From a bacterium (lineage in GTDB: Bacteria > Patescibacteriota > Minisyncoccia > Phycocordibacterales > JBBTRF01), in NCBI GenBank assembly GCA_037130265.1, contig JBAXTI010000001.1, forward strand, positions 32,418 to 96,417: a stretch of DNA of 64,000 nucleotides, written 5' to 3'. The translations under genes were made by a program, and so were the position numbers. Below, in pieces: positions 488-57,521 of this stretch. How positions within the stretch are numbered: position 1 is the stretch's first letter; the number at the start of each line of letters is the position of its first letter. A model generated the notes under the pieces. The model was given only the letters and a program-made list of their open reading frames with translations, did not search any database and was not told where the DNA came from.

Positions 488-507
488 TTTCGCTTTATTA
501 TACCCGA

Positions 508-957
508 TTATACTTGTTTGTTGTCCTTCGTGACGGGATTCGTAAGATCTTTCGTGGTCACATCCAGACTCCAAGTCATGTCTTTCAGCTTGCTATCGGC
601 CAAGCGCGGGACGTATAGATTGTCGAGGTCACTTGAAGATTCGCGTTCCTCGGTCGTTCTCGCCACCGGTTTTTTGTCCTGTTTCTTCCAGATATATAGC
701 TTCTCCCCAATGTAGTATTTGAAGACGTTTTCGACGAAGAGGATGAACGTTTGGCGCTCATTTGGGTGATAGAAGGCGAGAGCGAGGGCAAAGGCCCCGA
801 CAGGAAGTGCCGCCATGACGCCAAAGAGCAGGCCCAAGTATCGGATGATCACGAAACACATCCCCGCCCCACCAGCAATATAGACGAACTGCTTGATCGT
901 GAGAGGACCAATAATCTTGTCTTCCACCTCGATGAATTGTGGAACTTGAAACCGCAT
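508..957 (-). CDS. PrgI family protein (T4SS-associated small membrane protein)
   Basis: The N-terminus MRFQVPQFIEVEDKIIGPLTIKQFVYIAGGAGMCFVI followed by two TM helices is characteristic of PrgI-family proteins. ATG start. Sits directly upstream of the VirB4-like gene. Confidence 0.6.
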   Translation of the reverse strand: MRFQVPQFIEVEDKIIGPLTIKQFVYIAGGAGMCFVIIRYLGLLFGVMAALPVGAFALALAFYHPNERQTFILFVENVFKYYIGEKLYIWKKQDKKPVARTTEERESSSDLDNLYVPRLADSKLKDMTWSLDVTTKDLTNPVTKDNKQV

Positions 958-1020: not shown

Positions 1021-1635
1021 TTAGTTGATTGCTTCTCGGTACGGGTCTGGTTCGGTGTTAGTGCGCGAGATCTGCGGCGGCAAGCTGGTTGGTCGGCTCA
1101 TCTTCTGCTCCGCGAGGGTCTTTGGAGCGAAGGTGGGTGCAAATGGTGTTGGTTGCGATGCTGCGGGTGTGGAAGGGGTTGTGGGCGTGGCGGTTGTGGC
1201 GCGGGGCGACATATCGCCGGTGAGTGCGATCTTCCCTGGCGAATGGACCTCGAGGAGATGCTCGAAATGTGTCTCTACCGCAGGAATCTCTGCCTGTTCG
1301 CTCTGTGGAATCTCGTGGATGAGGATGAGGGACTCTCGGACCGGTCGGAAGATATTTTCGTTGATCTCGTCGGCGATTTTTTGGGCTGTCGTCGTCGGAA
1401 TATTTGCCAGCTGTGCGATGCGTTGGGAAAACCCTTTTATTGGGTCGACTGCCATGAGGATGTTGCAGGTTAGAGAATTGAGTTGCCACAACAGGCTGCT
1501 GACGACTCGGTGCTCCGTTCCGATTCGTTCGGTAGTCATCCTTGTTTTTTCATCAACGATGACGTCCTGAAGATCCTCAGGGATCTGCCAGAAGCGCTCA
1601 TCCAATTCTTTTTCGGTGCTGATAGAGTATTTCAT
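1021..1635 (-). CDS. hypothetical protein (T4SS-like operon member)
   Basis: 204 aa ORF with ATG start, tightly packed in the minus-strand operon. P/T-rich C-terminus. No recognisable domain. Confidence 0.5.
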   Translation of the reverse strand: MKYSISTEKELDERFWQIPEDLQDVIVDEKTRMTTERIGTEHRVVSSLLWQLNSLTCNILMAVDPIKGFSQRIAQLANIPTTTAQKIADEINENIFRPVRESLILIHEIPQSEQAEIPAVETHFEHLLEVHSPGKIALTGDMSPRATTATPTTPSTPAASQPTPFAPTFAPKTLAEQKMSRPTSLPPQISRTNTEPDPYREAIN

Positions 1636-1640
1636 TGGTG

Positions 1641-4175
1641 CTATTTTTTATCTCCGACTTTCGCTTCACCCCCACCCCCCTCCTTTTCCTTACCCTCCTT
1701 CTCCTTTTTATCAGACTCCTTTTCTTCACGTTTTTCACGACTCTCTTCTATTTTTTCAAGCTTCTTGTGAAGTTCGTTACGAGTTTTCTGTGATTTTAAT
1801 ATACGGCGCTTCTGGATCTGCAGCGAGTGTCTTGATTCTGGGGACAGTTTAGGGTCTGCAAGGTCATCTGCGATTTCTTCCAGAGTGACGACTTCTTCCT
1901 CGGCAAGCTTCTCACGTGCCTCCTTGTATCTCTTAAACATCTTTTCGAGCTGTTCGGCCTTCTTTTCCTTGTCAGCCATTGCCTCGATCTTCGACAATTC
2001 ATCAGCAGCTCCTGCGGATATATCGGCCTGAAGCGTTTTCCACTTCCTCCCCTCCTCAGTGCTCTCGTCATGTGCCTCAGGAAGCGCAGGGCTTAGTGCA
2101 GAATTTCTTGAGCTCTTGATCTCGGCACCAATGTTCTGCATATACGCGAGTATTCCCTTCTCCCAAGCCGCACCTTCTTCTGTCTTCTTCGCGTCCTTCT
2201 TCGTGTCCTCCTTGATTTGTTTATTAACAGCAGCAACTGCAGCAACATTCTCTTTGAAGCTTTCGCCAACACGGTATGGTTGGAAGTTCACCTTGGTGTT
2301 TTTGATGTTTTCCTTGGTCCAGGTTTTAGGATCAAGCGCCTTCAAATTAGTTGCGACATTCAAGGCTGGGGCGACAGGAGTGCCCGTCTTAATTGCCTCA
2401 ACATATCCCTGTTGTCGCTTTGGCTTTGCGTCGCCCTCCTTTTTCTCGAAGTCTTTCTTCTCACTTTCATATTGAGCCTCCCGCATTGCAAATGCCTCGG
2501 CACTTTCAAATGTTTTTCTGTACGGCTTCGGCTGGTTCCATTCAACAACCTTAGACATTCGTCCGTATCCTTCCTTGGCATTTTTCTCCGACTGTTTTAC
2601 GGCCCCATCAAACCCACCTTTTGCGCCACCAAAATCGGCACCAGCGACATTTTTAAGACTACTGTTCATGAGGCGACCAGCCAAAGGACTGACTGATTCG
2701 ATGTTCTTGGCAAAACCACTGTCCCGCGCTGCTGCGGCAGCTCTTCCGAGGGTATTCCTGCCAACCACGCCTTGCAGCTGCCCCTTCTTCTTTTTGAGGT
2801 AGTCGGTGAATACCTCCCCTCCTTCGATACCCACTTTACTTGCGCTCTTCAGAGCGTAGACCATCATTGCAATAACGATGATGAAGCGGAAAACGATGTT
2901 CACGGTCGTGCCGCTCAATGTTGAAAACAAACCAGAAAACCCGTCTGCCCCAGGTGCAACTGTCTGAAAACCAGGACTCTGCAGGATTTTGAAGGTGATC
3001 CACATCATGGCCATGTAGACGGGAGGAAATACGACATTTGCTTGAAGTTCTTTCCACCAATTGCTTTGATACTCGCCCAACTGTGGGAGGACAAAGCCAG
3101 CAAAAGCAATCGGTGAGCGAATCATGAGGAAAATGATGTCAATGAATCGCTTGAGGAAGAGCCAGCACGCCGCGACCATCACCACGATAGTGACACAGAT
3201 GAAAATGCTGCCCATGACAGTGGAAAGGATGTAGGCGAAGGTAGTCACTGGACTGTTAGCTATGTCGGTAACCACTCCACCGTATTTTGGCTTGTAAATA
3301 GTTTCAAGCTTCAGCGATTGCATAATACTGTTTGAGATGCCACCCGCACCGGATGTGCCGGTTGCAATCGAGCCGGGATTAATAGCCCCGGCCCCAACTC
3401 CAGGAAGCTGACTGTAGAATCCAATAGTGACAATGTTTGAAAGATCGAGCGCGACCTTGGTGATGAAAAGACTGAAGTTGATGAGTAGTGCCGCGAGTAC
3501 CAAGTTCCCTACCGTCTTTTTCCAATCGACTTTTTCCAAACCAAGAATAGTGCCTACTGCGGCATAGAGCAATGCAAAAATAAAGAAGAGGTTGATGAAG
3601 TCGCGGATCACTTTCCAGATGTCGGTGATGACGCCGAGACTGTCGATGGTGGTTTTGAGATTGACAATTGTCTTGTCGATGATGAAGTTGAAAACCAGGC
3701 CGACCAAGCCAAGTACCCAGCCGAACATCATCAGGATGGTGTTGCCAATGATTTTCATCGCGACAGGAATCCAGTTGTACGGATTGAGCATTCTCAAAGA
3801 AAAAACCGTGTCCTGATTTCCACTCCCCCCAGCCTGCTTCGGGTCGGTGTTATTCTGGCTCTGCGTGTTTGCTGAGGTGTTGCCGGAGCTCTGTTCAAGG
3901 GCGTCGGTGGCCGCATTTGGGTTGGCAGCCTGATTGATATTTGAAGTCTGCTCGAATGAATTGGTGTCCGCGTTTGGATCGGCTGGCGCTGTAGGCGGTG
4001 CGGTCTCGTTGGTACCCTCTTCCGGTGCGACATTTTGTGCCGGCGGAGTTACGGGAGGTGGCGCTGTCTCACTGCTACCTTCCTCAGCCGAAACGACATT
4101 TGCAAAGATTGAGCAAGTCAAAACCAGTACCATGAGTCCGGCCGCTATGTATTTGTACACAGAGTTGGTTTTCAT
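1641..4175 (-). CDS. large polytopic membrane protein, VirB6/TrbL-like candidate
   Basis: 844 aa. N-terminal signal peptide, then a low-complexity P/T/N-rich region, then about 8 hydrophobic helices, then a long K/E-rich hydrophilic C-terminal tail. This architecture and its operon position match VirB6/TrbL-type channel subunits. Domain call is by composition and topology only. Confidence 0.5.
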   Translation of the reverse strand: MKTNSVYKYIAAGLMVLVLTCSIFANVVSAEEGSSETAPPPVTPPAQNVAPEEGTNETAPPTAPADPNADTNSFEQTSNINQAANPNAATDALEQSSGNTSANTQSQNNTDPKQAGGSGNQDTVFSLRMLNPYNWIPVAMKIIGNTILMMFGWVLGLVGLVFNFIIDKTIVNLKTTIDSLGVITDIWKVIRDFINLFFIFALLYAAVGTILGLEKVDWKKTVGNLVLAALLINFSLFITKVALDLSNIVTIGFYSQLPGVGAGAINPGSIATGTSGAGGISNSIMQSLKLETIYKPKYGGVVTDIANSPVTTFAYILSTVMGSIFICVTIVVMVAACWLFLKRFIDIIFLMIRSPIAFAGFVLPQLGEYQSNWWKELQANVVFPPVYMAMMWITFKILQSPGFQTVAPGADGFSGLFSTLSGTTVNIVFRFIIVIAMMVYALKSASKVGIEGGEVFTDYLKKKKGQLQGVVGRNTLGRAAAAARDSGFAKNIESVSPLAGRLMNSSLKNVAGADFGGAKGGFDGAVKQSEKNAKEGYGRMSKVVEWNQPKPYRKTFESAEAFAMREAQYESEKKDFEKKEGDAKPKRQQGYVEAIKTGTPVAPALNVATNLKALDPKTWTKENIKNTKVNFQPYRVGESFKENVAAVAAVNKQIKEDTKKDAKKTEEGAAWEKGILAYMQNIGAEIKSSRNSALSPALPEAHDESTEEGRKWKTLQADISAGAADELSKIEAMADKEKKAEQLEKMFKRYKEAREKLAEEEVVTLEEIADDLADPKLSPESRHSLQIQKRRILKSQKTRNELHKKLEKIEESREKREEKESDKKEKEGKEKEGGGGEAKVGDKK

Positions 4176-5096: not shown

Positions 5097-6014
5097 TCAC
5101 TGCCCTATAAGGGTAAAGGCATAACCCGGATCTTTTGTGGAGAATACAATGCCTTTTTTGGTGAAGTACTGCCCGACTGATTTCAGTGCGGCATTAAGTG
5201 CTGTGACATTTTGATCATAGGCCGAAAGGTGCGAGATGGCGGTGGCCGGATCGCTCTCGAATACCGCGAAGTGTGCGATGTTGACGCCGATCCGGCCAGT
5301 GACATTGGCGAGGACCACCTGGAGGGGTTTTGCATCACTCGGGATAGTCATTTGTACGAGCTTTTGGCCAATCTTCTCATATGCATCAGCCAATGCTCTC
5401 AGATTGTCGAGATCTTCTGAATTAGCGCCGCCCTCGGCCATTTTGGCGAGCAACGAAAGCTCGTTACCAGCAAGGTTTTTGGGAGAATTTTCCACAATCA
5501 GAGTAGCTAGGGCGTTGCCGTAGGTGCGAATTTGATCTGGGGTGGGGCTGGAAATAAGCCCAAGATTGGCCCCTGTGTAGGTAATGTACTCGATTTTCTT
5601 GGTATTTTCCTCGATAACGTTGTTCACGAGATTCGCTTGGAGTTCTGGGGTGATTTCCTGGCCGTTATTCTTCAAAATCAAGTATTTGGCGAAAAGATCA
5701 ATGGAAATGCGCTCAGTGAGGTTGCGTTGATCGAAGCTCTTTTCAGCATCAGAAACCTTGGATTCGGTCGTTGAAACGCCAGTTTCGCTGCCAGAAGTGT
5801 TAAAAGTGTCTCTGAAAAGGCCGGAATTGCTGCCGGAGACTGCCTGAATCTGTGCGCCACTGCCCACTTCCCCATTTTCAGGGCTGTTCCCAAGCTCGAT
5901 ACTCTTACCGGTCCGGCCAAGCAACACTATCCCCGCCACGGCAGCGAGTACGACGATTCCGAAAGCAATTTTTTTATAAAGAGGTTCCATAAAAGAGTAC
6001 GATCGGTCCGCCAT
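5097..6014 (-). CDS. hypothetical membrane-anchored protein (T4SS-like operon)
   Basis: The ORF track gives 5097..6038 with a GTG start. In-frame ATGs at 6014 and 5990 are more likely starts. Has an N-terminal TM helix. Confidence 0.45.
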   Translation of the reverse strand: MADRSYSFMEPLYKKIAFGIVVLAAVAGIVLLGRTGKSIELGNSPENGEVGSGAQIQAVSGSNSGLFRDTFNTSGSETGVSTTESKVSDAEKSFDQRNLTERISIDLFAKYLILKNNGQEITPELQANLVNNVIEENTKKIEYITYTGANLGLISSPTPDQIRTYGNALATLIVENSPKNLAGNELSLLAKMAEGGANSEDLDNLRALADAYEKIGQKLVQMTIPSDAKPLQVVLANVTGRIGVNIAHFAVFESDPATAISHLSAYDQNVTALNAALKSVGQYFTKKGIVFSTKDPGYAFTLIGQ

Positions 6015-26772: not shown

Positions 26773-26844
26773 GCACCTATAGTGAAACGGATATCACAAC
26801 GGTCTTCGGAACCGTTAGTTCAGGTTCGAGTCCTGATGGGTGCA
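26773..26844 (+). tRNA. tRNA-Arg (anticodon TCG)
   Basis: Manual cloverleaf: acceptor GCACCTA/TGGGTGC, anticodon stem ACGGT/ACCGT with loop CTTCGGA, T-arm TCAGG-TTCGAGT-CCTGA. Confidence 0.75.
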
Positions 26845-26942
26845 CCTGTAGCGCGTCGCCTCTATCCCCTTTGCGGGAGATATGTGCTCGACCAACACGG
26901 ACTTGTTGAATTTTTTCACAAGTGAGGTAAAATAGTCGCATT

Positions 26943-27013
26943 GCGGTCATGGTTTAGTGGTAGAACACGACCTTGCCAAGGTTGAGATGAGAGTTCGATT
27001 CTCTCTGACCGCA
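26943..27013 (+). tRNA. tRNA-Gly (anticodon GCC)
   Basis: Acceptor GCGGTCA/TGACCGC, anticodon arm CGACC-TTGCCAA-GGTTG, T-loop TTCGATT. Confidence 0.8.
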
Positions 27014-27390
27014 CAAAGTAGAAGGTCTCGATGAGATGTGTTATGTGTCCAAAAGATGCTGTTCTGTCCTATATTCATAGCACCACGAAGAATCCTCGAA
27101 GTGTTGAGTTCGGTAATGTTTCCCAAGAAATAAGCAGGCGGATCTAGGGGTATTCAATCCCCATGATTGACAGAACTGGGGATAACTATGTGTACACTGT
27201 GTATAAAGGACAGCATTTTTATGGCTCAAAATCGTCCCTTACGCACTGTCTCACGGGTCCTTTTTCATTTAAATGGCTCTAATTAGCCCCATTCTAGATT
27301 TGATCCCGAATATCTGTAAAAGACGTAAAAGCAGCGCTATTTTAGAAAAAGGTTTCACGTGAAACAACCTATCTATGTGTAACAAAACCA

Positions 27391-27762
27391 ATGAATACAA
27401 CGGAAATCGGTAAAAAGGGCGAGGAAATCGCCAAAATGTTTCTTGTGAAACGAGGTTTTTGCCGTTTCGAGGCTAATTTTCGTGAAAAGTGCGGGGAAAT
27501 AGACATTGTTGCACATGAAACATCTACCTGTACTCTCTGGTTCTTTGAGGTGAAGACCGCCTCTGTGAGATCTTTTTACGATGAATTTCGCCCAGAAGAG
27601 AAAGTTGATCGCCGAAAACTGGCAAAGATATATAAGACAATTGAGCTGTACTTGATACGGAAAAGGGTTTCACAAGAAACACCTTGGCAGGTCGGTGTCA
27701 TTTCCGTGCTTATGAATGCGGAAAAGGGGATTGCGAGGGTGTCGTTCATCCCCGTGCATTGA
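27391..27762 (+). CDS. YraN family (UPF0102) endonuclease-like protein
   Basis: GEEIA..FL...G..I...N.R...GEIDIVA...FFEVKTA, the YraN pattern. 123 aa. Confidence 0.75.
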   Translation: MNTTEIGKKGEEIAKMFLVKRGFCRFEANFREKCGEIDIVAHETSTCTLWFFEVKTASVRSFYDEFRPEEKVDRRKLAKIYKTIELYLIRKRVSQETPWQVGVISVLMNAEKGIARVSFIPVH

Positions 27763-27822
27763 AGTTGTAATACTCCTGTGCTAGTATGGTGAAACTCGGT
27801 CGCAGAAAAGTGTTGAAAATAT

Positions 27823-27895
27823 CGGGGCGTGGTGTAACGGCTAACATTCCTGTTTTGGGAACAGGCGACTCAGGGTTCGAATCCCTGCGCCCCGA
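27823..27895 (+). tRNA. tRNA-Pro (anticodon TGG)
   Basis: Acceptor CGGGGCG/CGCCCCG, anticodon arm CCTGT-TTTGGGA-ACAGG, T-arm CAGGG-TTCGAAT-CCCTG. The index was cross-checked against an overlapping spurious ORF. Confidence 0.85.
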
Positions 27896-31319: not shown

Positions 31320-31390
31320 GCGGGCATGGTATAGTGGTAGAACAACACACTTCCAATGTGTAGACGAGAGTTCGATTCTCTCTGCCCGCA
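31320..31390 (+). tRNA. tRNA-Gly (anticodon TCC)
   Basis: Acceptor GCGGGCA/TGCCCGC, anticodon arm ACACA-CTTCCAA-TGTGT, T-arm GAGAG-TTCGATT-CTCTC. Confidence 0.8.
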
Positions 31391-44516: not shown

Positions 44517-45734
44517 ATGCCACTATTTTCATACAAAGCAGTCGATCCAAATGGCGTTTCCAGAGAGGGAACGGCTGATGCTGCGGATCGCTTTGCAGTG
44601 GCCCGTGAGCTGAAAGAGAAGGGGCTCATGCTCGTGAGTGCCGAGGAGACTCTCGAGAAGCATTCTGTGCTCGATGAGAAAATTCGTCAGCTTTTTGGTC
44701 GCATTAGCATGCGCGAGAAGATAATGTTTGCCCGTAATACGAGCGCGATGCTCGAGGCGGGCCTCACTTTGTCTCGCATCCTCTCTGTAATCGAGCGTCA
44801 ATCGAGAAATCAGAAATTCAAAGAGGTCGTATCGACGATCAACAATGAGATTCGCGGCGGCAAGACGCTGAACGAGGCCATGGTGGGCTTTCCGAAGGTA
44901 TTTTCGCCACTTTTCGTCTCCATGGTCCGCTCCGGCGAGGAATCGGGTAATCTTTCTGGTGCACTAAAGACTTTGAGTGGGCAGATGGAGAAGAGCTATT
45001 TGCTCCAGAAGCGCTTGCGGGGCGCACTTATCTATCCAGTGATCGTGATGTGTCTGATTGCTGTTATCGGTGTGCTTATGTTTATCTATGTAGTGCCGAC
45101 TCTTACGAACACATTCAAAGAGTTGCATGTGAAATTGCCATGGAGCACGCAACTCATCGTTTCGACGAGTGATTTTCTTCGATACCATACGATCGCTTTC
45201 ATTTTGGCCGTTGCCGCAGTTATTTTTGGCATCATTTTCTTCAAGCGCAGCGCTTTTGGTGGTAAGCTTATCGACAAAGTCATGCTCCGCCTACCGATTG
45301 TTGGTGTCTTGGTGAAAGAGTCCAATTCGGCTCGTACGGCCCGCACCTTATCTTCATTGCTTTCAGCCGGTGTGTCCTTTTTGGCAGCCATGGAGATCAC
45401 TCGTGATGTTGTGCAAAATATTTTTTACAAAGAAGTACTTGAAAAGGCGCGGCTGAATGTGCAGAAAGGCGACCCGATTTCAAGTGTGTTCATCGAAAAT
45501 GAGCATTTGTATCCGGCTTTTGTCGGCGAAATGACCAGTGTGGGCGAGGAAACAGGCCAATTGGCCGAAATGATGCTCGGTATTGCGACTTTTTATGAAG
45601 GAGAAGTGGAACAGAAGACGAAAGACATGTCCACAATCATTGAGCCGTTGCTCATGGTACTTATCGGTTCCGCAGTAGGATTCTTTGCCGTCTCCATGAT
45701 TAGTCCGACGTATTCACTTCTCGACAATATCTAG
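44517..45734 (+). CDS. pilC: type IV pilus inner-membrane platform protein PilC (GspF family)
   Basis: Two T2SSF repeats and three TM helices. 405 aa. Confidence 0.85.
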   Translation: MPLFSYKAVDPNGVSREGTADAADRFAVARELKEKGLMLVSAEETLEKHSVLDEKIRQLFGRISMREKIMFARNTSAMLEAGLTLSRILSVIERQSRNQKFKEVVSTINNEIRGGKTLNEAMVGFPKVFSPLFVSMVRSGEESGNLSGALKTLSGQMEKSYLLQKRLRGALIYPVIVMCLIAVIGVLMFIYVVPTLTNTFKELHVKLPWSTQLIVSTSDFLRYHTIAFILAVAAVIFGIIFFKRSAFGGKLIDKVMLRLPIVGVLVKESNSARTARTLSSLLSAGVSFLAAMEITRDVVQNIFYKEVLEKARLNVQKGDPISSVFIENEHLYPAFVGEMTSVGEETGQLAEMMLGIATFYEGEVEQKTKDMSTIIEPLLMVLIGSAVGFFAVSMISPTYSLLDNI

Positions 45735-45842
45735 AACAAGAGGGTGTGAGTAAGTGGGAACTGCGGAGGCCGACGGGCCGAGCCCGAGCGAAAAGCCTCC
45801 AGGCTTTTGCGTGTGTCCCACTTACTCGCACTCTCTTGTTCT
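45733..45842. repeat. structured intergenic element, copy A: 27 nt inverted-repeat arms around a 56 nt GC-rich core with internal hairpins
   Basis: Arms AGAACAAGAGGGTGTGAGTAAGTGGGA (45733-45759) and TCCCACTTACTCGCACTCTCTTGTTCT (45816-45842). The core is homologous to the reverse complement of 56849-56904. Confidence 0.5.
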
Positions 45843-45861
45843 GAGGTGCTATACTATCGAA

Positions 45862-46635
45862 ATGAAAAAGAAGCGAATGCAATCATTAATCGTCGGAAAC
45901 TGGAAGATGAATCCAGGAAGTGTATTGGAAGCAAAGGATATTGTGGCGAAAGTGAAGCGTGGAACCAAGAGTTTTTTGAAGGCGAAAGTGGTGCTTTGTC
46001 CGCCCTCCTTGTATTTGTCGGAGGTGCAAAAGGCCCTGAATGGGACACGTCTGGCTGCTGGAGTGCAGAATGTGTTTACGGAAGAAGGGGGTTCGTATAC
46101 CGGAGAGGTTTCAGCAAAGCAGGCGGCTTCGTGCGGGGCGACTTACGCTATTATTGGTCATTCTGAGCGCCGAAAGATGGCTGAAACAGATGCTGTTGTC
46201 ACCAAGAAGGCACTTTTGGCGATTCGCAATGGTCTCACGGCGATTGTTTGCATTGGTGAAGCAGAGCGTGACACTCAGGGGAAGTACTTGGCGTTCTTGA
46301 AAGAGCAGATCACGCAGTCGCTCGCTACTTTGTCTGTCGGCGAGTTGAAAAAGCTTGTGATTGCATATGAGCCTGTCTGGACAATTGGCGCGAGTGCCGC
46401 AATGTCACCTGGACAGGTGCATGAGACCGGTATTTATGTCCGCAAGGTACTTTCCGATCTCTATGACCCTGTGTCTGCTTCAAAAGTACCAGTTTTGTAT
46501 GGCGGCTCAGTGAATGCGGAGAATTGTGAGGCGATTCTCAAGGAGGGGGAAGTGGACGGTCTTTTGATTGGCCGAGAAAGCCTTGTTCCTGCCGACTTTA
46601 TTGCTATCGCCAAGATTGCCAATGAGCTCAAATAG
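45862..46635 (+). CDS. tpiA: triosephosphate isomerase
   Basis: NWKMN, IGHSERR, VIAYEPVWAIG-like motifs. Start at the internal ATG (45862). Confidence 0.9.
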   Translation: MKKKRMQSLIVGNWKMNPGSVLEAKDIVAKVKRGTKSFLKAKVVLCPPSLYLSEVQKALNGTRLAAGVQNVFTEEGGSYTGEVSAKQAASCGATYAIIGHSERRKMAETDAVVTKKALLAIRNGLTAIVCIGEAERDTQGKYLAFLKEQITQSLATLSVGELKKLVIAYEPVWTIGASAAMSPGQVHETGIYVRKVLSDLYDPVSASKVPVLYGGSVNAENCEAILKEGEVDGLLIGRESLVPADFIAIAKIANELK

Positions 46636-48238: not shown

Positions 48239-50080
48239 ATGACTGCTACGGCTGCTAAGGCGAAATACACTGTCCGTCCACCTGTTCCTGCGAAGGTAAA
48301 GAGCGAGCTTGCGGCGTATCCAGACTTTCTTCAACACCTTTTATTTCATCGAGGGATCACGGAGGCAACGGCTGCCGAAGCATTTCTCAATCCCAGCTAC
48401 GAAACCCACACCCATGACCCTTTTTTGCTGAAAGACATGTCAAAATCGGTAAAGCGCGTGCTCGCAGCTATAGAAAAGGGTGAAAAGATCGTTATTTTTA
48501 GCGATTATGATGCCGACGGTATTCCGGGCGGTGTTGTCTTGCATGATTTTTTCAAAAAAATCGGCTACACCAACTTCTCCAACTACATTCCACACCGTCA
48601 CAACGAGGGTTTCGGGCTCAATACTGAAGCCGTTGAAGGTTTTGCGAAGGATAGGGCGAAATTGGTGATCACGATCGACTGCGGTATTGCCGATATTGCC
48701 GAGGTGAAGCGTGGACAGGAGCTGGGAATGGACATGATCGTCACTGACCATCATTTGCCGCTCACGGAAATGAACAAAAAGGGCCAAGAAGTGCCAATGT
48801 TGCCGCCCGCCTTCGCAATTTTGAATCCAAAACAGGACGACTGTGCCTACCCGGAGAAAATGCTCTGTGGTTCAGGGGTGATTTTCAAGTTGGTACAGGC
48901 ATTGGTGAAGGAGTGGCAGAAAAAGGCCAAAAAGGCTGGAAAAGGGGTATCTGATGAGGTTGAAATTGTCGATGGTTGGGAGAAGTGGCTGCTCGACATG
49001 GTCGGAATGGCCACGCTTTCGGATATGGTGCCGCTGACCGGAGAAAACCGTGTATTCGCCTACTATGGCCTCAAGGTGCTGCGAAAGTCACCTCGCGTCG
49101 GTTTGATGAAATTGTTGAGGAAGATCAAGACCGACCAGCGAAATCTCACCGAAGATGATATTGGCTTTACGATCTCCCCACGCATTAACGCAGCTTCTCG
49201 TATGGGCGTGCCGCACGACGCCTTCCGCTTGCTCTCCACGACCGATGAAACGGAGGCAGACCAGCTCAGCGATCACCTGAACCGCATAAATGACGAACGA
49301 AAGGGGATTGTGGCCGCTATGGTGAAGGAAATGAAACATGCTCTCGAGGCTCGGTGGGCGAATGAGGGTGGTGTGGAGCGTCCGAAACCCAAGCTTATTG
49401 TCCTCGGTAATCCAAAATGGAAGCCTGCACTGCTTGGTCTGGCGGCTAATACGCTCATGGAGGCATATTCTTGTCCAGTATTTCTTTGGGGTCGCGATGG
49501 TGAGAATGTTTTGAAAGGTTCCTGTCGGTCCAATGGGGTGAGCCTGCAGGCGTTGATGTGCAAAGTGCCCGGAGCTACCTTGTCTGCCTATGGTGGACAT
49601 GCGTTGGCCGGAGGTTTTGCGGTGACGAATGAAGAAGTGCACAAGCTCGAAGCGGATCTATTGGCAGCGTACGAGATGGTGGATGGTGCAGGCGAGGCGG
49701 ATGGTGCGGAAGATGGTTCTTGTGTAGACGCTTTGATCGCGTTTGATGATGTGAACTGGCAGACTTACGGTATTCTCGAAAAATTAGCGCCATTCGGTAC
49801 GGGCAATCCGAAGCCACTCTTTCTGTTTGAAAATGCGTTGCTACGCGAAGTGAAAGCGTTTGGGAAAGAACGAAACCATATCGAGCTTGGGTTCAGCAAG
49901 ACAAATGGCAACAAAGTTTCGGCAATTGGTTTTTTTAGCACGCCAGAAGATTGGCAGGCCCAATTGGGTGTTGGCCGGAAATTGGCGGTGGGCGAAAGGG
50001 TGCATCTGGTGGCGACTTTGGAAAAATCAACATTCCGTAATTTCCCAGAACTACGTTTGAGGATTGTGGATATATTTTGA
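48239..50080 (+). CDS. recJ: single-stranded-DNA-specific exonuclease RecJ
   Basis: DHH motifs (IFSDYDADG, TDHH) and a DHHA1 domain. Start at ATG 48239, since the track start would overlap the HIT gene. Confidence 0.85.
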   Translation: MTATAAKAKYTVRPPVPAKVKSELAAYPDFLQHLLFHRGITEATAAEAFLNPSYETHTHDPFLLKDMSKSVKRVLAAIEKGEKIVIFSDYDADGIPGGVVLHDFFKKIGYTNFSNYIPHRHNEGFGLNTEAVEGFAKDRAKLVITIDCGIADIAEVKRGQELGMDMIVTDHHLPLTEMNKKGQEVPMLPPAFAILNPKQDDCAYPEKMLCGSGVIFKLVQALVKEWQKKAKKAGKGVSDEVEIVDGWEKWLLDMVGMATLSDMVPLTGENRVFAYYGLKVLRKSPRVGLMKLLRKIKTDQRNLTEDDIGFTISPRINAASRMGVPHDAFRLLSTTDETEADQLSDHLNRINDERKGIVAAMVKEMKHALEARWANEGGVERPKPKLIVLGNPKWKPALLGLAANTLMEAYSCPVFLWGRDGENVLKGSCRSNGVSLQALMCKVPGATLSAYGGHALAGGFAVTNEEVHKLEADLLAAYEMVDGAGEADGAEDGSCVDALIAFDDVNWQTYGILEKLAPFGTGNPKPLFLFENALLREVKAFGKERNHIELGFSKTNGNKVSAIGFFSTPEDWQAQLGVGRKLAVGERVHLVATLEKSTFRNFPELRLRIVDIF

Positions 50081-56822: not shown

Positions 56823-56829
56823 AGCGCTC

Positions 56830-56923
56830 AGAGAATTTTTTGGAAGGATACGCGTAAAAGTCTGGCGACTTTTCGCTCCGGCTCGGCCCGTCGGCCTGCG
56901 CAGTTCCTTCCAAAAAATTCTCT
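56830..56923. repeat. structured intergenic element, copy B: 19 nt perfect inverted-repeat arms around a 56 nt core homologous (inverted) to copy A
   Basis: Arms AGAGAATTTTTTGGAAGGA (56830-56848) and TCCTTCCAAAAAATTCTCT (56905-56923). The reverse complement of the core aligns with 45760-45815, with compensatory stem changes. Confidence 0.5.
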
Positions 56924-56933
56924 TCGCTTAGTG

Positions 56934-56960
56934 AAAAAACCGCTCAGGGAGCGGTTTTTT
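56934..56960 (+). terminator. rho-independent terminator after rpsG
   Basis: AAAAAACCGCTCAGGGAGCGGTTTTTTCTTG. Confidence 0.65.
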
Positions 56961-56999
56961 CTTGTTAAAACTAAATTTACCACGTACAATGTTCCTATC

Positions 57000-57521
57000 A
57001 TGAAAACAATTCAAAATGTTGCCTCAGGGATTTTTATCGGCGCGGTGAGTATCCTCTCTCTTATTTCGATTCTCGGGGTCTGGGACATTTTCAACAAAGA
57101 CGTTATCTCGAAGTCATTTGCAACACTTGGAATTTTGGCTGCGGTAGCCGTGGTGGTGATGGTCGCGGGAAAATTTGTTGGTGGCGGCGAAGCTGTTGAT
57201 CCAAGCGTGCCAAACGTTCCTGCTCTACCAAATCCAGCCTTCAGAATTATCCGCATTGCCACCCTCGGAGCACTTATTGTGTCGGCGGTCCTCCTCGCTT
57301 TTCTCGGGGTGTGTAGTATTTGGGAGATTATTACCGATAAGGCGATTCTCTATAAGTCACTCAGCTCCCTTGCAATCATTGCATTTTCTTCGTTCGTCAT
57401 TGTTCTCAGTTGTTTGGAGCGCGAAGACAGTCCTCTTTTGAAGCGCGGTGGCCGACTTTCTCCGGGTCTTATCCTCGTTCTCATCATTATCTTTGTCTGG
57501 ATGTTGGCTGCTCTTCTCTAA
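57000..57521 (+). CDS. hypothetical polytopic membrane protein
   Basis: About 6 TM helices. Start at ATG 57000, because the track start would read through the rpsG terminator. Confidence 0.5.
   Translation: MKTIQNVASGIFIGAVSILSLISILGVWDIFNKDVISKSFATLGILAAVAVVVMVAGKFVGGGEAVDPSVPNVPALPNPAFRIIRIATLGALIVSAVLLAFLGVCSIWEIITDKAILYKSLSSLAIIAFSSFVIVLSCLEREDSPLLKRGGRLSPGLILVLIIIFVWMLAALL

Follow-up and report, generated by a model that had tools for sequence, protein, structure and literature searches.

Bacterial MITEs, such as the Correia elements of Neisseria and the RUP elements of pneumococcus, are small non-coding units flanked by inverted repeats, which lie dispersed between genes, are bordered by a target-site duplication and appear as filled and empty sites when relatives are compared. 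When transcribed they form long hairpins, some of which are cut by RNase III. Their terminal repeats are conserved and shared with the family and with a parent insertion sequence, and the middle is free. The REP, BIME and REPIN elements that occur with RAYT (IS200-like) transposases are interspersed palindromes at 3' ends and between convergent genes, found in both orientations and occasionally as adjacent inverted pairs, and they are long-lived and vertically inherited. REPs are short (20-40 nt), usually present in hundreds of copies, with a conserved stem sequence and a GTAG-type tetranucleotide, and in REPINs the loops are the variable part. In the rRNA-mimic operators (the L1, L10, L20 and S8 leaders), an mRNA carries a copy of an rRNA site that is thought to bind the rRNA's own protein; these stand once per genome, in sense, in the 5' leader of the operon of the binding protein. 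The RNase III stems of pre-rRNA and the 23S intervening sequences place a long duplex of free sequence around a conserved RNA, which can be cleaved by RNase III for release, and are located inside rRNA operons. Finally, integron attC sites conserve structure while their sequence varies, and one folded strand is recognized with specificity provided by unpaired bases; they have conserved ends (R''/R', RYYYAAC...GTTRRRY), a free middle, and lie in cassette arrays beside an integrase.

The two elements analyzed here, in a window of 64,000 nt (the whole stretch of DNA under study), are real members of a dispersed and undescribed family of small, non-coding, palindromic insertion elements in Patescibacteria; our literature search found the family described nowhere. 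With MITEs they share the non-coding unit bounded by inverted repeats, the target duplication and the filled and empty sites, but here a 56-nt middle is conserved and the arms are free, no terminal repeat is common to the family, no parent element was found, and orthologous copies stay intact for very long periods. They resemble REPs and REPINs in location, orientation and longevity, but it is the junction and loops that are conserved and not a short outer palindrome, and neither a three-way junction nor an rRNA resemblance belongs to those elements. Like the rRNA-mimic operators they resemble an rRNA site, in this case helices 86-87 of 23S rRNA, but they are carried at many unrelated junctions and in either orientation instead of in a sense-strand leader. 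The long, free duplex around a conserved head recalls the pre-rRNA stems, except that it lies between protein-coding genes. The conserved structure and variable sequence are also those of attC, yet the ends (AGAACAAG...CTTGTTCT and AGAGAA...TTCTCT) lack the attC signature and the neighbors are housekeeping genes.

An earlier note on this DNA had described a two-copy family of structured intergenic elements in the pilC-tpiA gap and in the gap between rpsG and its terminator, and both copies are present there (Table 1). As claimed, the cores are mutually reverse-complementary, with 48 of 56 positions identical (86%, slightly above the 80% first given), and the outer arms (27 bp in A, 19 bp in B) are unrelated between the copies and self-complementary within each pair. 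The compensatory changes that it pointed out are real; AAAAGCC/GGCUUUU versus AAAAGUC/GACUUUU lies in P3, and GGGA/UCCC versus AGGA/UCCU constitutes the inner end of P1. A further candidate, a G-C to C-G exchange from A to B linking the loop of P2 with the junction, was rejected as a covarying pair because locus L171 has G and G. P1 of copy A is Watson-Crick paired throughout apart from two G.U pairs, as read on the + strand. The first 38 nt of the two cores are almost identical, and a single local conversion event is therefore possible.

Table 1. Positions of the two elements, their structural parts and adjacent signals in the window.
Feature	Position	Strand	Remarks
Copy A	45733-45842	+	between T2SSF/pilC stop and tpiA start
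Copy A, P1 5' arm	45733-45759	+	27 nt, purine-rich; pairs with 45816-45842
Copy A, conserved core	45760-45815	+	56 nt, three-way-junction head; rRNA-like strand on +
Copy A, hairpin P2	45761-45785	+	CUGC-GGA-GGCC-GACG-GGCC-GA-GCCC; resembles 23S helix 86
Copy A, P2b	45768-45779	+	part of P2
Copy A, hairpin P3	45788-45812	+	GCG-AAAAGCC-UCCA-GGCUUUU-G(bulge)-CGU; in helix 87 position
Copy A, P1 3' arm	45816-45842	+	27 nt
Extended -10-like box for tpiA	45847-45855	+	TGCTATACT; context, just after copy A
Copy B	56830-56923	core on -	between rpsG stop (56822) and T-run hairpin at 56934-56960
Copy B, P1 3' arm on rRNA-like strand	56830-56848	-	pairs with 56905-56923, 19 bp, perfect
Copy B, conserved core	56849-56904	-	antisense to rpsG
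Copy B, P3	56852-56876	-
Copy B, P2	56879-56903	-	P2b 56885-56896
Copy B, P1 5' arm on rRNA-like strand	56905-56923	-	perfect 19-bp inverted repeat
Two-way intrinsic-terminator-like hairpin	56934-56960		AAAAAACCGCUCAGGGAGCGGUUUUUU; context, outside the element, 10 nt from copy B

Copy A fits tightly between its neighbors, whose identities are given by Pfam T2SSF and TIM. The TAG stop codon of the T2SSF/pilC gene (45732-45734) contains the start of the 5' arm, and the tpiA ATG (45862) stands 19 nt past the end of the 3' arm. The -10-like box of tpiA is kept in all relatives whether the element is present or absent, and its position right after copy A puts the element where the pilB-pilC transcription unit ends. 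The gene before copy B is rpsG (Pfam Ribosomal_S7), and the terminator portions of several Rfam models align on both strands of the hairpin that follows.

The description of a two-copy family holds within the window but not beyond it, as many members occur in other Patescibacteria. Pattern scans and a covariance model, extending the search to related genomes that had been advised at the outset, recovered 30 copies in approximately 262 kb of Patescibacteria DNA, all fitting one model, at a density of about one copy per 20-30 kb; copies A and B score 90 and 97 bits (R1) and 76 and 84 bits (R2), respectively. The units are 80-140 nt long with arms of 14-34 bp and no ORF, and share a three-way junction in which the stem P1 is variable, the hairpin P2 is conserved and the hairpin P3 covaries. 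Across the 30 copies, 93.3% of the cells assigned to pairs are paired, in comparison to 66.6% in shuffles and 34-50% with the partners slid, and 24 of 26 pairs change on both sides (9 of 10 in P3, helix 4). P2b and P3 are 100% paired, with G.U pairs present and zero unpaired cells, and both P2 and P3 were independently recovered by RNAalifold on a plain MAFFT alignment. All four strands of copies A and B also fold far better than their shuffles (z = -6.6 to -8.6). The head is far better conserved than the stem, including its unpaired positions (GC-GNA...GACG...GA-GC, the AAA/UUU base and a bulged A), and the arms of different copies are unrelated, as are largely those of orthologs; a loose purine-rich AGRRA end, common to one clade, is all that they have in common. 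Structure is kept while sequence varies, covariation is strong, and the pattern is not one of neutral decay, as the earlier note had argued.

That note had also recognized no known ncRNA family here, which our searches bear out. Rfam gave zero matches on either copy at E <= 10, and nothing reached a gathering score in the window or in 14 loci; the families covered in this way include hammerhead, twister, Y RNA, 5S, 6S and ribosomal protein leaders. A hammerhead-like junction was rejected, as CUGCGGA (CUGCGCA in B) compared with CUGANGA lacks the essential A6 and G8. By inspection of the sequence a kink-turn was discarded as well, since the internal loop of P2 has 3 nt on its 5' side and 2 nt on its 3' side and lacks the bulge-plus-tandem-GA layout.

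The likeness of the head to rRNA, which the earlier note had not noticed, falls at one place. A pattern derived from the core matches the 23S genes of many phyla there, where those genes carry CUGCGAGGCCGACGGGCCGAGCAG, and the match runs past the pattern itself into ACUGCG upstream. The element model scores this place in 10 of 10 23S loci (E = 7.5e-5 to 0.18), and the Rfam LSU model has two hairpins at it; P2 matches helix 86, and P3 is located where helix 87 is. Diverged copies alter the P2b stem and sometimes the loop (GUCG, GGGUA), so that one common subfamily resembles helix 86 most strongly. This resemblance of the 56-nt head suggests a folded single strand that probably binds a ribosome-related factor. 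We know of no mimic of helices 86-87, and our literature search on binders of these helices found nothing usable. For the 23S rRNA of CPR bacteria, PMC9297842 names helices 9, 63 and 78 among four CPR-wide gap regions and makes no mention of helices 86 and 87, and so gives no sign that the element replaces a missing piece of rRNA. A link to CPR rRNA introns or homing endonucleases was rejected, as the named positions of LAGLIDADG-encoding insertions (1917, 1931, 1952, 2593, 2604 and 2657) are not near helix 86. Two connections to viruses were likewise set aside: the core pattern matched viral contigs 49 times, each time by chance in a GC-rich phage and with the hairpin absent, and arm 24-mers from copy A and locus L193, considered as phage-derived spacer-like guides, had no exact IMG/VR match, which is a weak negative.

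It is highly improbable, and largely refuted, that the elements are neutral relics (23S rDNA fragments or decaying repeats), chance similarities or artefacts of assembly. The core does resemble a 23S segment, and L198, a metagenome copy, has mismatched arms of the kind expected from a chimeric assembly or a recombinant. However, the same copies turn up in assemblies made independently (NCBI, ENA and Logan), the controls fall far short of the elements in covariation and in paired fraction, and the core 17-mer occurs exactly twice in the window where 0.11 occurrences are expected by chance. Moreover, the core is conserved at orthologous sites whose third codon positions are at least 21-27% diverged.

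Comparison of orthologous sites provides direct evidence for the MITE-like origin that had been listed as one option among several. Site B is empty in the close relative L212 (RpsG 96% identical), with a weaker repeat, AGCGCTT, present at this site. At site A the element is missing from L225, which by its TpiA (89%) is the closest of the relatives, and in L222, L224 and L226 the element at this site has TATCTAA, a 7-bp target duplication, on both sides; at most other copies a target duplication is invisible. Further sites are occupied in some relatives only. The core at site A lies on the + strand in the window and on the - strand in L222, L224 and L226, and antisense copies are found at site B in the window and at site A in GCA_974945995.1 and GCA_038065315.1, the second of which derives, like ERZ1292625, from Hainich groundwater. 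Based on the empty sites, the 7-bp duplication and the opposite core orientations, the elements are old insertions of a MITE-like kind, located where transcription units end and able to flip. Neither arm is present at the empty sites, which rules out a local origin of the arms as well as the idea that only the core was inserted, into a palindrome or terminator already present. Orthologous cores remain intact even where TpiA identity is down to 72-82% and nothing recognizable is left of the arms; the outer arms of orthologous copies drift at approximately the neutral rate, which the earlier note had also not noticed. Concerted evolution was rejected as the source of core likeness, because orthologs have features peculiar to their site, GCGGA for A and GCGCA for B, and the two copies in GCA_974945995.1 differ from each other.

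A purely DNA-level selfish element, in which a transposase or recombinase acting in trans (e.g., HUH-type or otherwise structure-specific) recognizes the head of a folded strand or cruciform and RNA has no role, would account for much of this: the dispersed copies in both orientations, the presence and absence differences between close relatives, the target duplication, and locus L189, where three copies occur inside 1.2 kb and an inverted pair lies side by side. The copies are split about evenly in their orientation to the flanking genes (roughly 11 sense and 11 antisense), and antisense copies are conserved over long periods; a function independent of orientation fits DNA better than co-transcribed RNA, and with random orientation a DNA-level role may still apply. 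Mismatches in P1, read on the rRNA-like strand, comprise 26 G.U and 5 A.C (p = 2e-4), a bias which identifies the rRNA-like strand as the folding strand, and this strand usually gives a more stable fold than its complement. G.T is, however, the best-tolerated mismatch in folded single-stranded DNA too, so that the bias is equally expected for a folded DNA strand and is no proof of RNA. Template switching can also keep the arms of a long DNA palindrome matched without selection on RNA. Against this reading, the arms would have to be the terminal inverted repeats but differ from copy to copy, the opposite of MITEs and REPINs; old orthologous copies with an intact head are unpredicted by selection for mobility alone; and at the DNA level there is no rationale for resembling an rRNA hairpin with G-A loops. 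No transposase domain was found among the called genes next to any copy in the genome fragments available. A role tied to the replication strand fails too, as GC skew is mostly positive with no clear switch between A and B, yet their orientations are opposite. We consider a solely DNA-level element somewhat unlikely. The choice between RNA and DNA posed by the earlier note is only narrowed; the folding strand is the rRNA-like one.

The genomic setting invites another explanation, in which the elements punctuate operon mRNA in cis and only the long stem matters, as a 3'-end protector, RNase III site or two-way terminator, with the head as a passenger. Copies follow a stop codon by 0-15 nt, separate convergent genes, or stand immediately ahead of the next promoter (pilC-tpiA; after rpsG (antisense), ftsZ, pgk, map and lysS; before rpoB, tuf and dnaA), the palindromic stem forms in transcripts of either direction, as fits the random orientation, and in roughly half of all copies the stem is bordered at its outer ends by A-runs and U-runs, like that of a two-way terminator. 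This explanation is distinctly unlikely in light of a head that is conserved beyond its stem, down to the unpaired positions. Both window copies lack the U-tract of an intrinsic terminator, a separate canonical terminator follows copy B, and L212, which has the same terminator hairpin directly 3' of rpsG at its empty site, manages with that alone; the element is also absent from the same junctions in other close relatives. A plain 3'UTR stabilizer, another of the functions first suggested, fails to explain a core that is conserved in either orientation to its host genes, though an RNase III target is plausible for the long stem. Counting against RNA read from the rRNA-like strand, no promoter common to the copies was found upstream of it, and in copy B a terminator-like hairpin lies directly upstream of this strand, where a promoter-like site was not found. 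Some antisense copies adjoin symmetric -10 boxes of downstream genes, which could fire divergently.

The explanation that we tentatively favor, at somewhat less than an even chance, is that of an RNA head that would bind a 50S-related protein and be presented or released by a stem of the kind cut by RNase III. The element arrives as a unit, arms and core together, creating a target duplication of about 7 bp, and usually lands close behind a stop codon, where a transcription unit ends. It then persists for a long time, the core can flip by recombination between the arms, and the arms drift at a near-neutral rate yet remain complementary; this history is either seen directly or follows closely from the data. 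The proposed action of the element is that of a folded single strand, most likely RNA from the rRNA-like strand, which is predicted to adopt the three-way junction. P1, a duplex of 14-34 bp of free sequence, may be an RNase III-type substrate and would thus present or release the 56-nt head, in which P2 seems to copy helix 86 in shape and in much of its sequence and P3 to take the place of helix 87. Since the head resembles helices 86-87, it may serve as a landing pad or decoy for the 50S protein normally bound in that region, either a ribosomal protein or an assembly factor. A bolder proposal, which we regard as unlikely, is that the elements are portable small-RNA genes. RNase III would cut P1 in transcripts that cross the element in the right direction, as in a primary microRNA hairpin, freeing a helix 86-87 mimic of 60-100 nt; with tens of copies per genome, these would amount to an abundant rRNA decoy that binds a 50S protein or assembly factor and couples ribosome assembly to the expression of growth genes, while the elements spread by transposition.

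The genomes of Patescibacteria are tiny and streamlined, their ribosomes are unusual, few of their regulators are known, and their non-coding RNA is almost uncharted. The family described here inverts the usual anatomy of bacterial repeats, with a conserved middle and free ends. If it is a DNA-level parasite, it would represent a new kind of structure-recognized mobile element. Whichever reading holds, the covariance model makes it possible to annotate a recurrent feature left blank so far in thousands of metagenome-assembled genomes, and whether a site is filled, empty or flipped is a useful marker of recent change in a genome. If the head does bind a ribosomal protein or assembly factor, this would be the first dispersed, mobile rRNA mimic and would offer a handle on the ribosome biology of unculturable organisms.

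The earlier note had placed copies A and B, the two structured intergenic elements of this stretch, between pilC and tpiA and after rpsG; both were re-found at its positions, and the neighbouring genes it named were borne out (see table). Its description of the 56-nt cores as mutual reverse complements also holds, with 48/56 positions identical, and a 17-mer taken from the core is present at exactly two places in the window, where chance predicts 0.11. The two-copy family that it proposed stands inside the window, where a model search with filters off returned just A and B, and falls elsewhere, as we found 30 copies in ~262 kb of Patescibacteria DNA. Two weak matches to the element models in the window (11-12 bits, E about 1) are probably chance. 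Checked against Rfam, neither copy gave a match even at E = 10, and no Rfam family matched the wider family; the sole Rfam matches in the window were four tRNA genes. Literature searches aimed at the family found no published description of it. The closest named relatives of RpsG and TpiA come from Parcubacteria, Paceibacterota and 'Patescibacteria group' genomes.

Coordinates and sequence features of the elements, their surroundings and comparison loci (L-numbers, from other genomes or metagenomes)
Feature	Position	Strand	Remarks
Copy A	45733-45842	+ (rRNA-like)	neighbours T2SSE, T2SSF (pilB, pilC), then TIM, PGK
Copy A P1 arms	45733-45759 and 45816-45842		27 nt each
Copy A core	45760-45815		56 nt
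Copy B	56830-56923	- (rRNA-like)	neighbours S12, S7
Copy B P1 arms	56830-56848 and 56905-56923		19 nt, perfect pairing
Copy B core	56849-56904		56 nt
P2			5'-CUGC-GNA-GGCC-GACG-GGCC-GA-GCNN-3'
Junction strands			A before P2; GA between P2 and P3; GUR after P3
Region with the tpiA extended -10-like box	45843-45864		TGNTATACT; same place in L222, L224, L225, L226
Weak model match	5243-5298		G+C-rich 11-bp hairpin within apparent coding sequence
Weak model match	48530-48596		
tRNA genes	26773-27895 and 31320-31390		four, three clustered
rpsG-fusA comparison	56823-57000; L212:1280-1654; L216:10471-11370; L219:10471-11366		
DnaA-box-like site	L171:4477-4520		
DnaA-box-like site	L187:~1990-2010		
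DnaA-box-like site	L107, just 3' of copy 2738-2839	-	
DnaA-box-like site	L194, just 3' of copy 488-577	-	
Three copies within 1.2 kb	L189:308-545 and 1379-1451		
Broken-stem copy	L198:865-1024		compared with L197:1404-1530 and L195
Diverged copy by tRNA gene	L106:3826-3990		

On the rRNA-like strand (that whose P2 hairpin resembles 23S rRNA; + for A, - for B), the variable outer stem P1 meets the core hairpins P2 and P3 in a three-way junction in each copy. P2 has a short helix at its base, then an internal loop rich in purines, and at its apex a helix of 4-5 bp capped by a GACG loop. P3 is a 10-bp hairpin in which AAA/UUU separates two runs of 3-4 variable pairs; its loop of 4 nt mostly reads AGCA, and a purine is bulged out on the 3' side. 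Two G.U pairs (+ strand) are the sole non-Watson-Crick positions in the arms of A. The conserved structure claimed in the earlier note is upheld by this junction, by folding of all strands that is much stronger than in shuffles (z = -6.6 to -8.6) and by covariation. In the 30-copy alignment, which was fitted to the covariance model, standard pairs occupy 93.3% of cells against 66.6% with shuffled partners, and 0/500 shuffles reached the observed pairing; sliding partners by 1-3 columns lowers it to 34-50%, both sides have changed in 24 of 26 pairs, and every copy pairs throughout P2b and P3. RNAalifold, given a plain MAFFT alignment as an independent check, also recovered P2 and P3 with double changes. 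A caveat is that template switching in long DNA palindromes can keep arms complementary without RNA selection. The P1 5' arm is purine-rich across all copies (mean 65%, often about 80%), and its inner end, opposite a 3' arm that is CCUCC-like, is often Shine-Dalgarno-like (GGAGGA, AAGGAG). Given the palindromic arms, the same applies to transcripts of either direction.

The wider family extends from close orthologs to much diverged copies. In GCA_974945995.1 (L001), a diverged ortholog of copy B lies downstream of a gene for an identical RpsG; it has P2b GGCGC/GCGCC, a P3 that differs in sequence yet still pairs, and four double, pair-preserving changes in P1. Scans of species-representative genomes and of metagenomes gave six and about thirteen more members, respectively, all on AT-rich Patescibacteria contigs, and the covariance models R1 (from five copies) and R2 (broader) each found further, more diverged copies within the same loci, with P2b stems that include GUGC/GCAC, GUGU/ACAC and ACGC/GCGU. 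Density is ~1 copy per 20-30 kb in DNA chosen via RpsG or TpiA rather than via the element. Of the three L189 copies, two form an adjacent inverted pair in the manner of a BIME; between copies 3 and 2, which are oppositely oriented, lies a gene that is ExoIII-type exonuclease/endonuclease-like by its N-terminal sequence alone. L198 joins the left arm of L197 to an unrelated right arm, which breaks the stem; either two copies have truly recombined here, or the assembly is chimeric at the repeated core. The diverged copy in L106 begins 17 nt past the 3' end of a tRNA gene. A DnaA-box-like TTGTCCACA directly follows the element in four loci; in L171 it is the first of four such boxes clustered between dnaA and rnpA/yidC, probably the origin region. 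L187 and L194 have in common a longer block, GGAGAGTTGTCCACAG, and a conserved block upstream of P1, so that in this lineage the hairpin is only part of what is repeated.

Comparison of filled and empty sites identifies the elements as insertions. Site B, the position of copy B, is empty in the close relative L212 (RpsG 96% and third codon positions 73% identical), where the stop codon is followed directly by the terminator, GGTAGCGCTTAG-AAAAAACCGC, against GGTAAAGCGCTC-element-TCGCTTAGTG-AAAAAACCGC in the window; the element is also missing in more distant relatives. Site A, the position of copy A, is empty (AATATCTAACAACCGATATGCTGAGGTGGTATACT) in L225, the closest relative by TpiA (89%), and filled in L222 (the L001 genome), L224 (GCA_038065315.1) and L226. 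In these three the DNA right of the element aligns gap-free to the empty site from TATCTAA onward, and since TATCTAA, the final seven bases of pilC, is present to the left as well, it is a 7-bp target-site duplication. The distribution over the phylogeny implies that the element inserted once, long ago, and was precisely lost in the L225 line; slippage between the direct repeats around a hairpin-forming element would be expected to cause such a loss. In L219 and L220 the site after pgk is filled, and in L216 that between rpsJ and rplC; neither is filled in the window. The window genome has rpsG without the fusA that follows it in relatives, and the spacer between the two genes is a hot spot of gene insertion, with a HigB-like toxin pair in L216 and an ORF6N-domain gene in L219.

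The core at site A, on + in the window, is on - in 3/3 filled relatives. A relationship can still be recognised in the outermost dozen arm bases (TAGAACAAGAGGG, TAAAGAAGAGAGC, TAGAGGACGAGGC, TAAAGGAAAGGAC), which points to one insertion, with a putative later inversion between the arms. At the site after ftsZ, L106 has the element in sense and L193 and L178 have it in antisense orientation. Relative to flanking genes, ~11 copies are sense, ~11 antisense and several lie between convergent genes; antisense copies retain a fully intact core (76-84 bits with R2) while TpiA is only 72-82% identical. Copies are placed 0-15 nt past stop codons, often directly before the -10 box of the next gene, and the tpiA -10 box is kept with or without the element. 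It lies only about 7 nt before the ATG, so the tpiA mRNA would be leaderless or nearly so; it is also nearly symmetric (TAGTATA on the opposite strand) and could drive divergent transcription toward the element. That P1 serves simply as punctuation or a terminator, irrespective of the head (the core with P2 and P3), we consider improbable: about half of the copies elsewhere carry A-runs and U-runs where the stem ends, whereas neither copy in the window has them.

Which strand folds can be read from the substitutions. Across 545 bp of P1 in 29 copies, departures from Watson-Crick pairing, read on the rRNA-like strand, comprise 26 G.U and 5 A.C (two-sided binomial p = 2e-4), P2b and P3 contain G.U pairs and no unpaired cells, and folding energy is usually lower on this strand than on its complement (-75 vs -62 kcal/mol for copy A, -82 vs -63 for L179 and -52 vs -39 for L142). 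A single strand therefore folds, namely the rRNA-like one. This bias is typical of RNA; a folded DNA strand, recognised by a mobile-element enzyme, would give the same bias, though we regard such a DNA-level role as rather unlikely. Between the window and L001, rpsG third codon positions and copy B arms are each 79% identical and the core about 70-75%, so the element changes at an approximately neutral rate, but only in ways that preserve pairs and the unpaired consensus. Orthologs have site-specific traits in common (GCGGA at site A, GCGCA at site B). In the window A and B are nearly identical over their first 38 nt, possibly through a single local conversion event; wholesale homogenisation as the cause of core likeness was ruled out, as the two copies of GCA_974945995.1 differ from one another.

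A genome-scan pattern derived solely from the element matched mostly 23S rRNA genes (Alphaproteobacteria, Chloroflexota, Bacillota, Acidobacteriota and others), all at one place, ...GCUUGACUGCGAGGCCGACGGGCCGAGCAGGGACGAAAGUCGGGCUUAGUGAUCC... The likeness exceeds the pattern, with ACUGCG upstream and a U-A-U-C-C-like stretch downstream. R1 scored this place at E = 7.5e-5 to 0.18 in 10/10 loci (<=0.034 in eight), values that flatter the match because the loci were pre-selected by pattern. The Rfam bacterial LSU model has a 9-pair hairpin here and then a 3-pair GAAA hairpin, which we take to be helix 86 (about 2347-2370, E. coli count) and helix 87. The element differs in having one extra nucleotide on the 5' side of the internal loop, a longer P3 in place of helix 87, and a junction closed by P1. 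Of four gap regions in CPR 23S rRNA, the relevant passages of PMC9297842 name helices 9, 63 and 78, leave one unnamed and make no mention of helices 86 and 87. Because the gaps named there are these, a mimic or derivative is the better reading of the element, rather than an absent rRNA piece provided in trans. In its genomic context the element is unlike rRNA-mimic operators.

As to mechanism, we tentatively favour an RNA role, because the head resembles an RNA-specific 50S motif and is conserved at unpaired bases too, and because the strand bias agrees with RNA. The random orientation relative to genes is a difficulty for this role. On the rRNA-like strand of copy B a terminator-like hairpin lies directly upstream, and no promoter-like site was found for that strand; some antisense copies adjoin symmetric -10 boxes, which might fire divergently. 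P1 is a long, sequence-free duplex of the sort that RNase III cuts, and in an RNA role it could release or present the head from any transcript crossing the element. The family and its insertion stand more firmly than this mechanism. Filed among interspersed palindromic repeats, the element finds its closest known kinds in MITEs and REP/REPIN, whose conserved terminal or stem sequence it lacks. Its anatomy is inverted with respect to known repeats, with the middle conserved and the ends free, and copies A and B are a pair of members of an undescribed, structured, MITE-like family of insertion elements in Patescibacteria.
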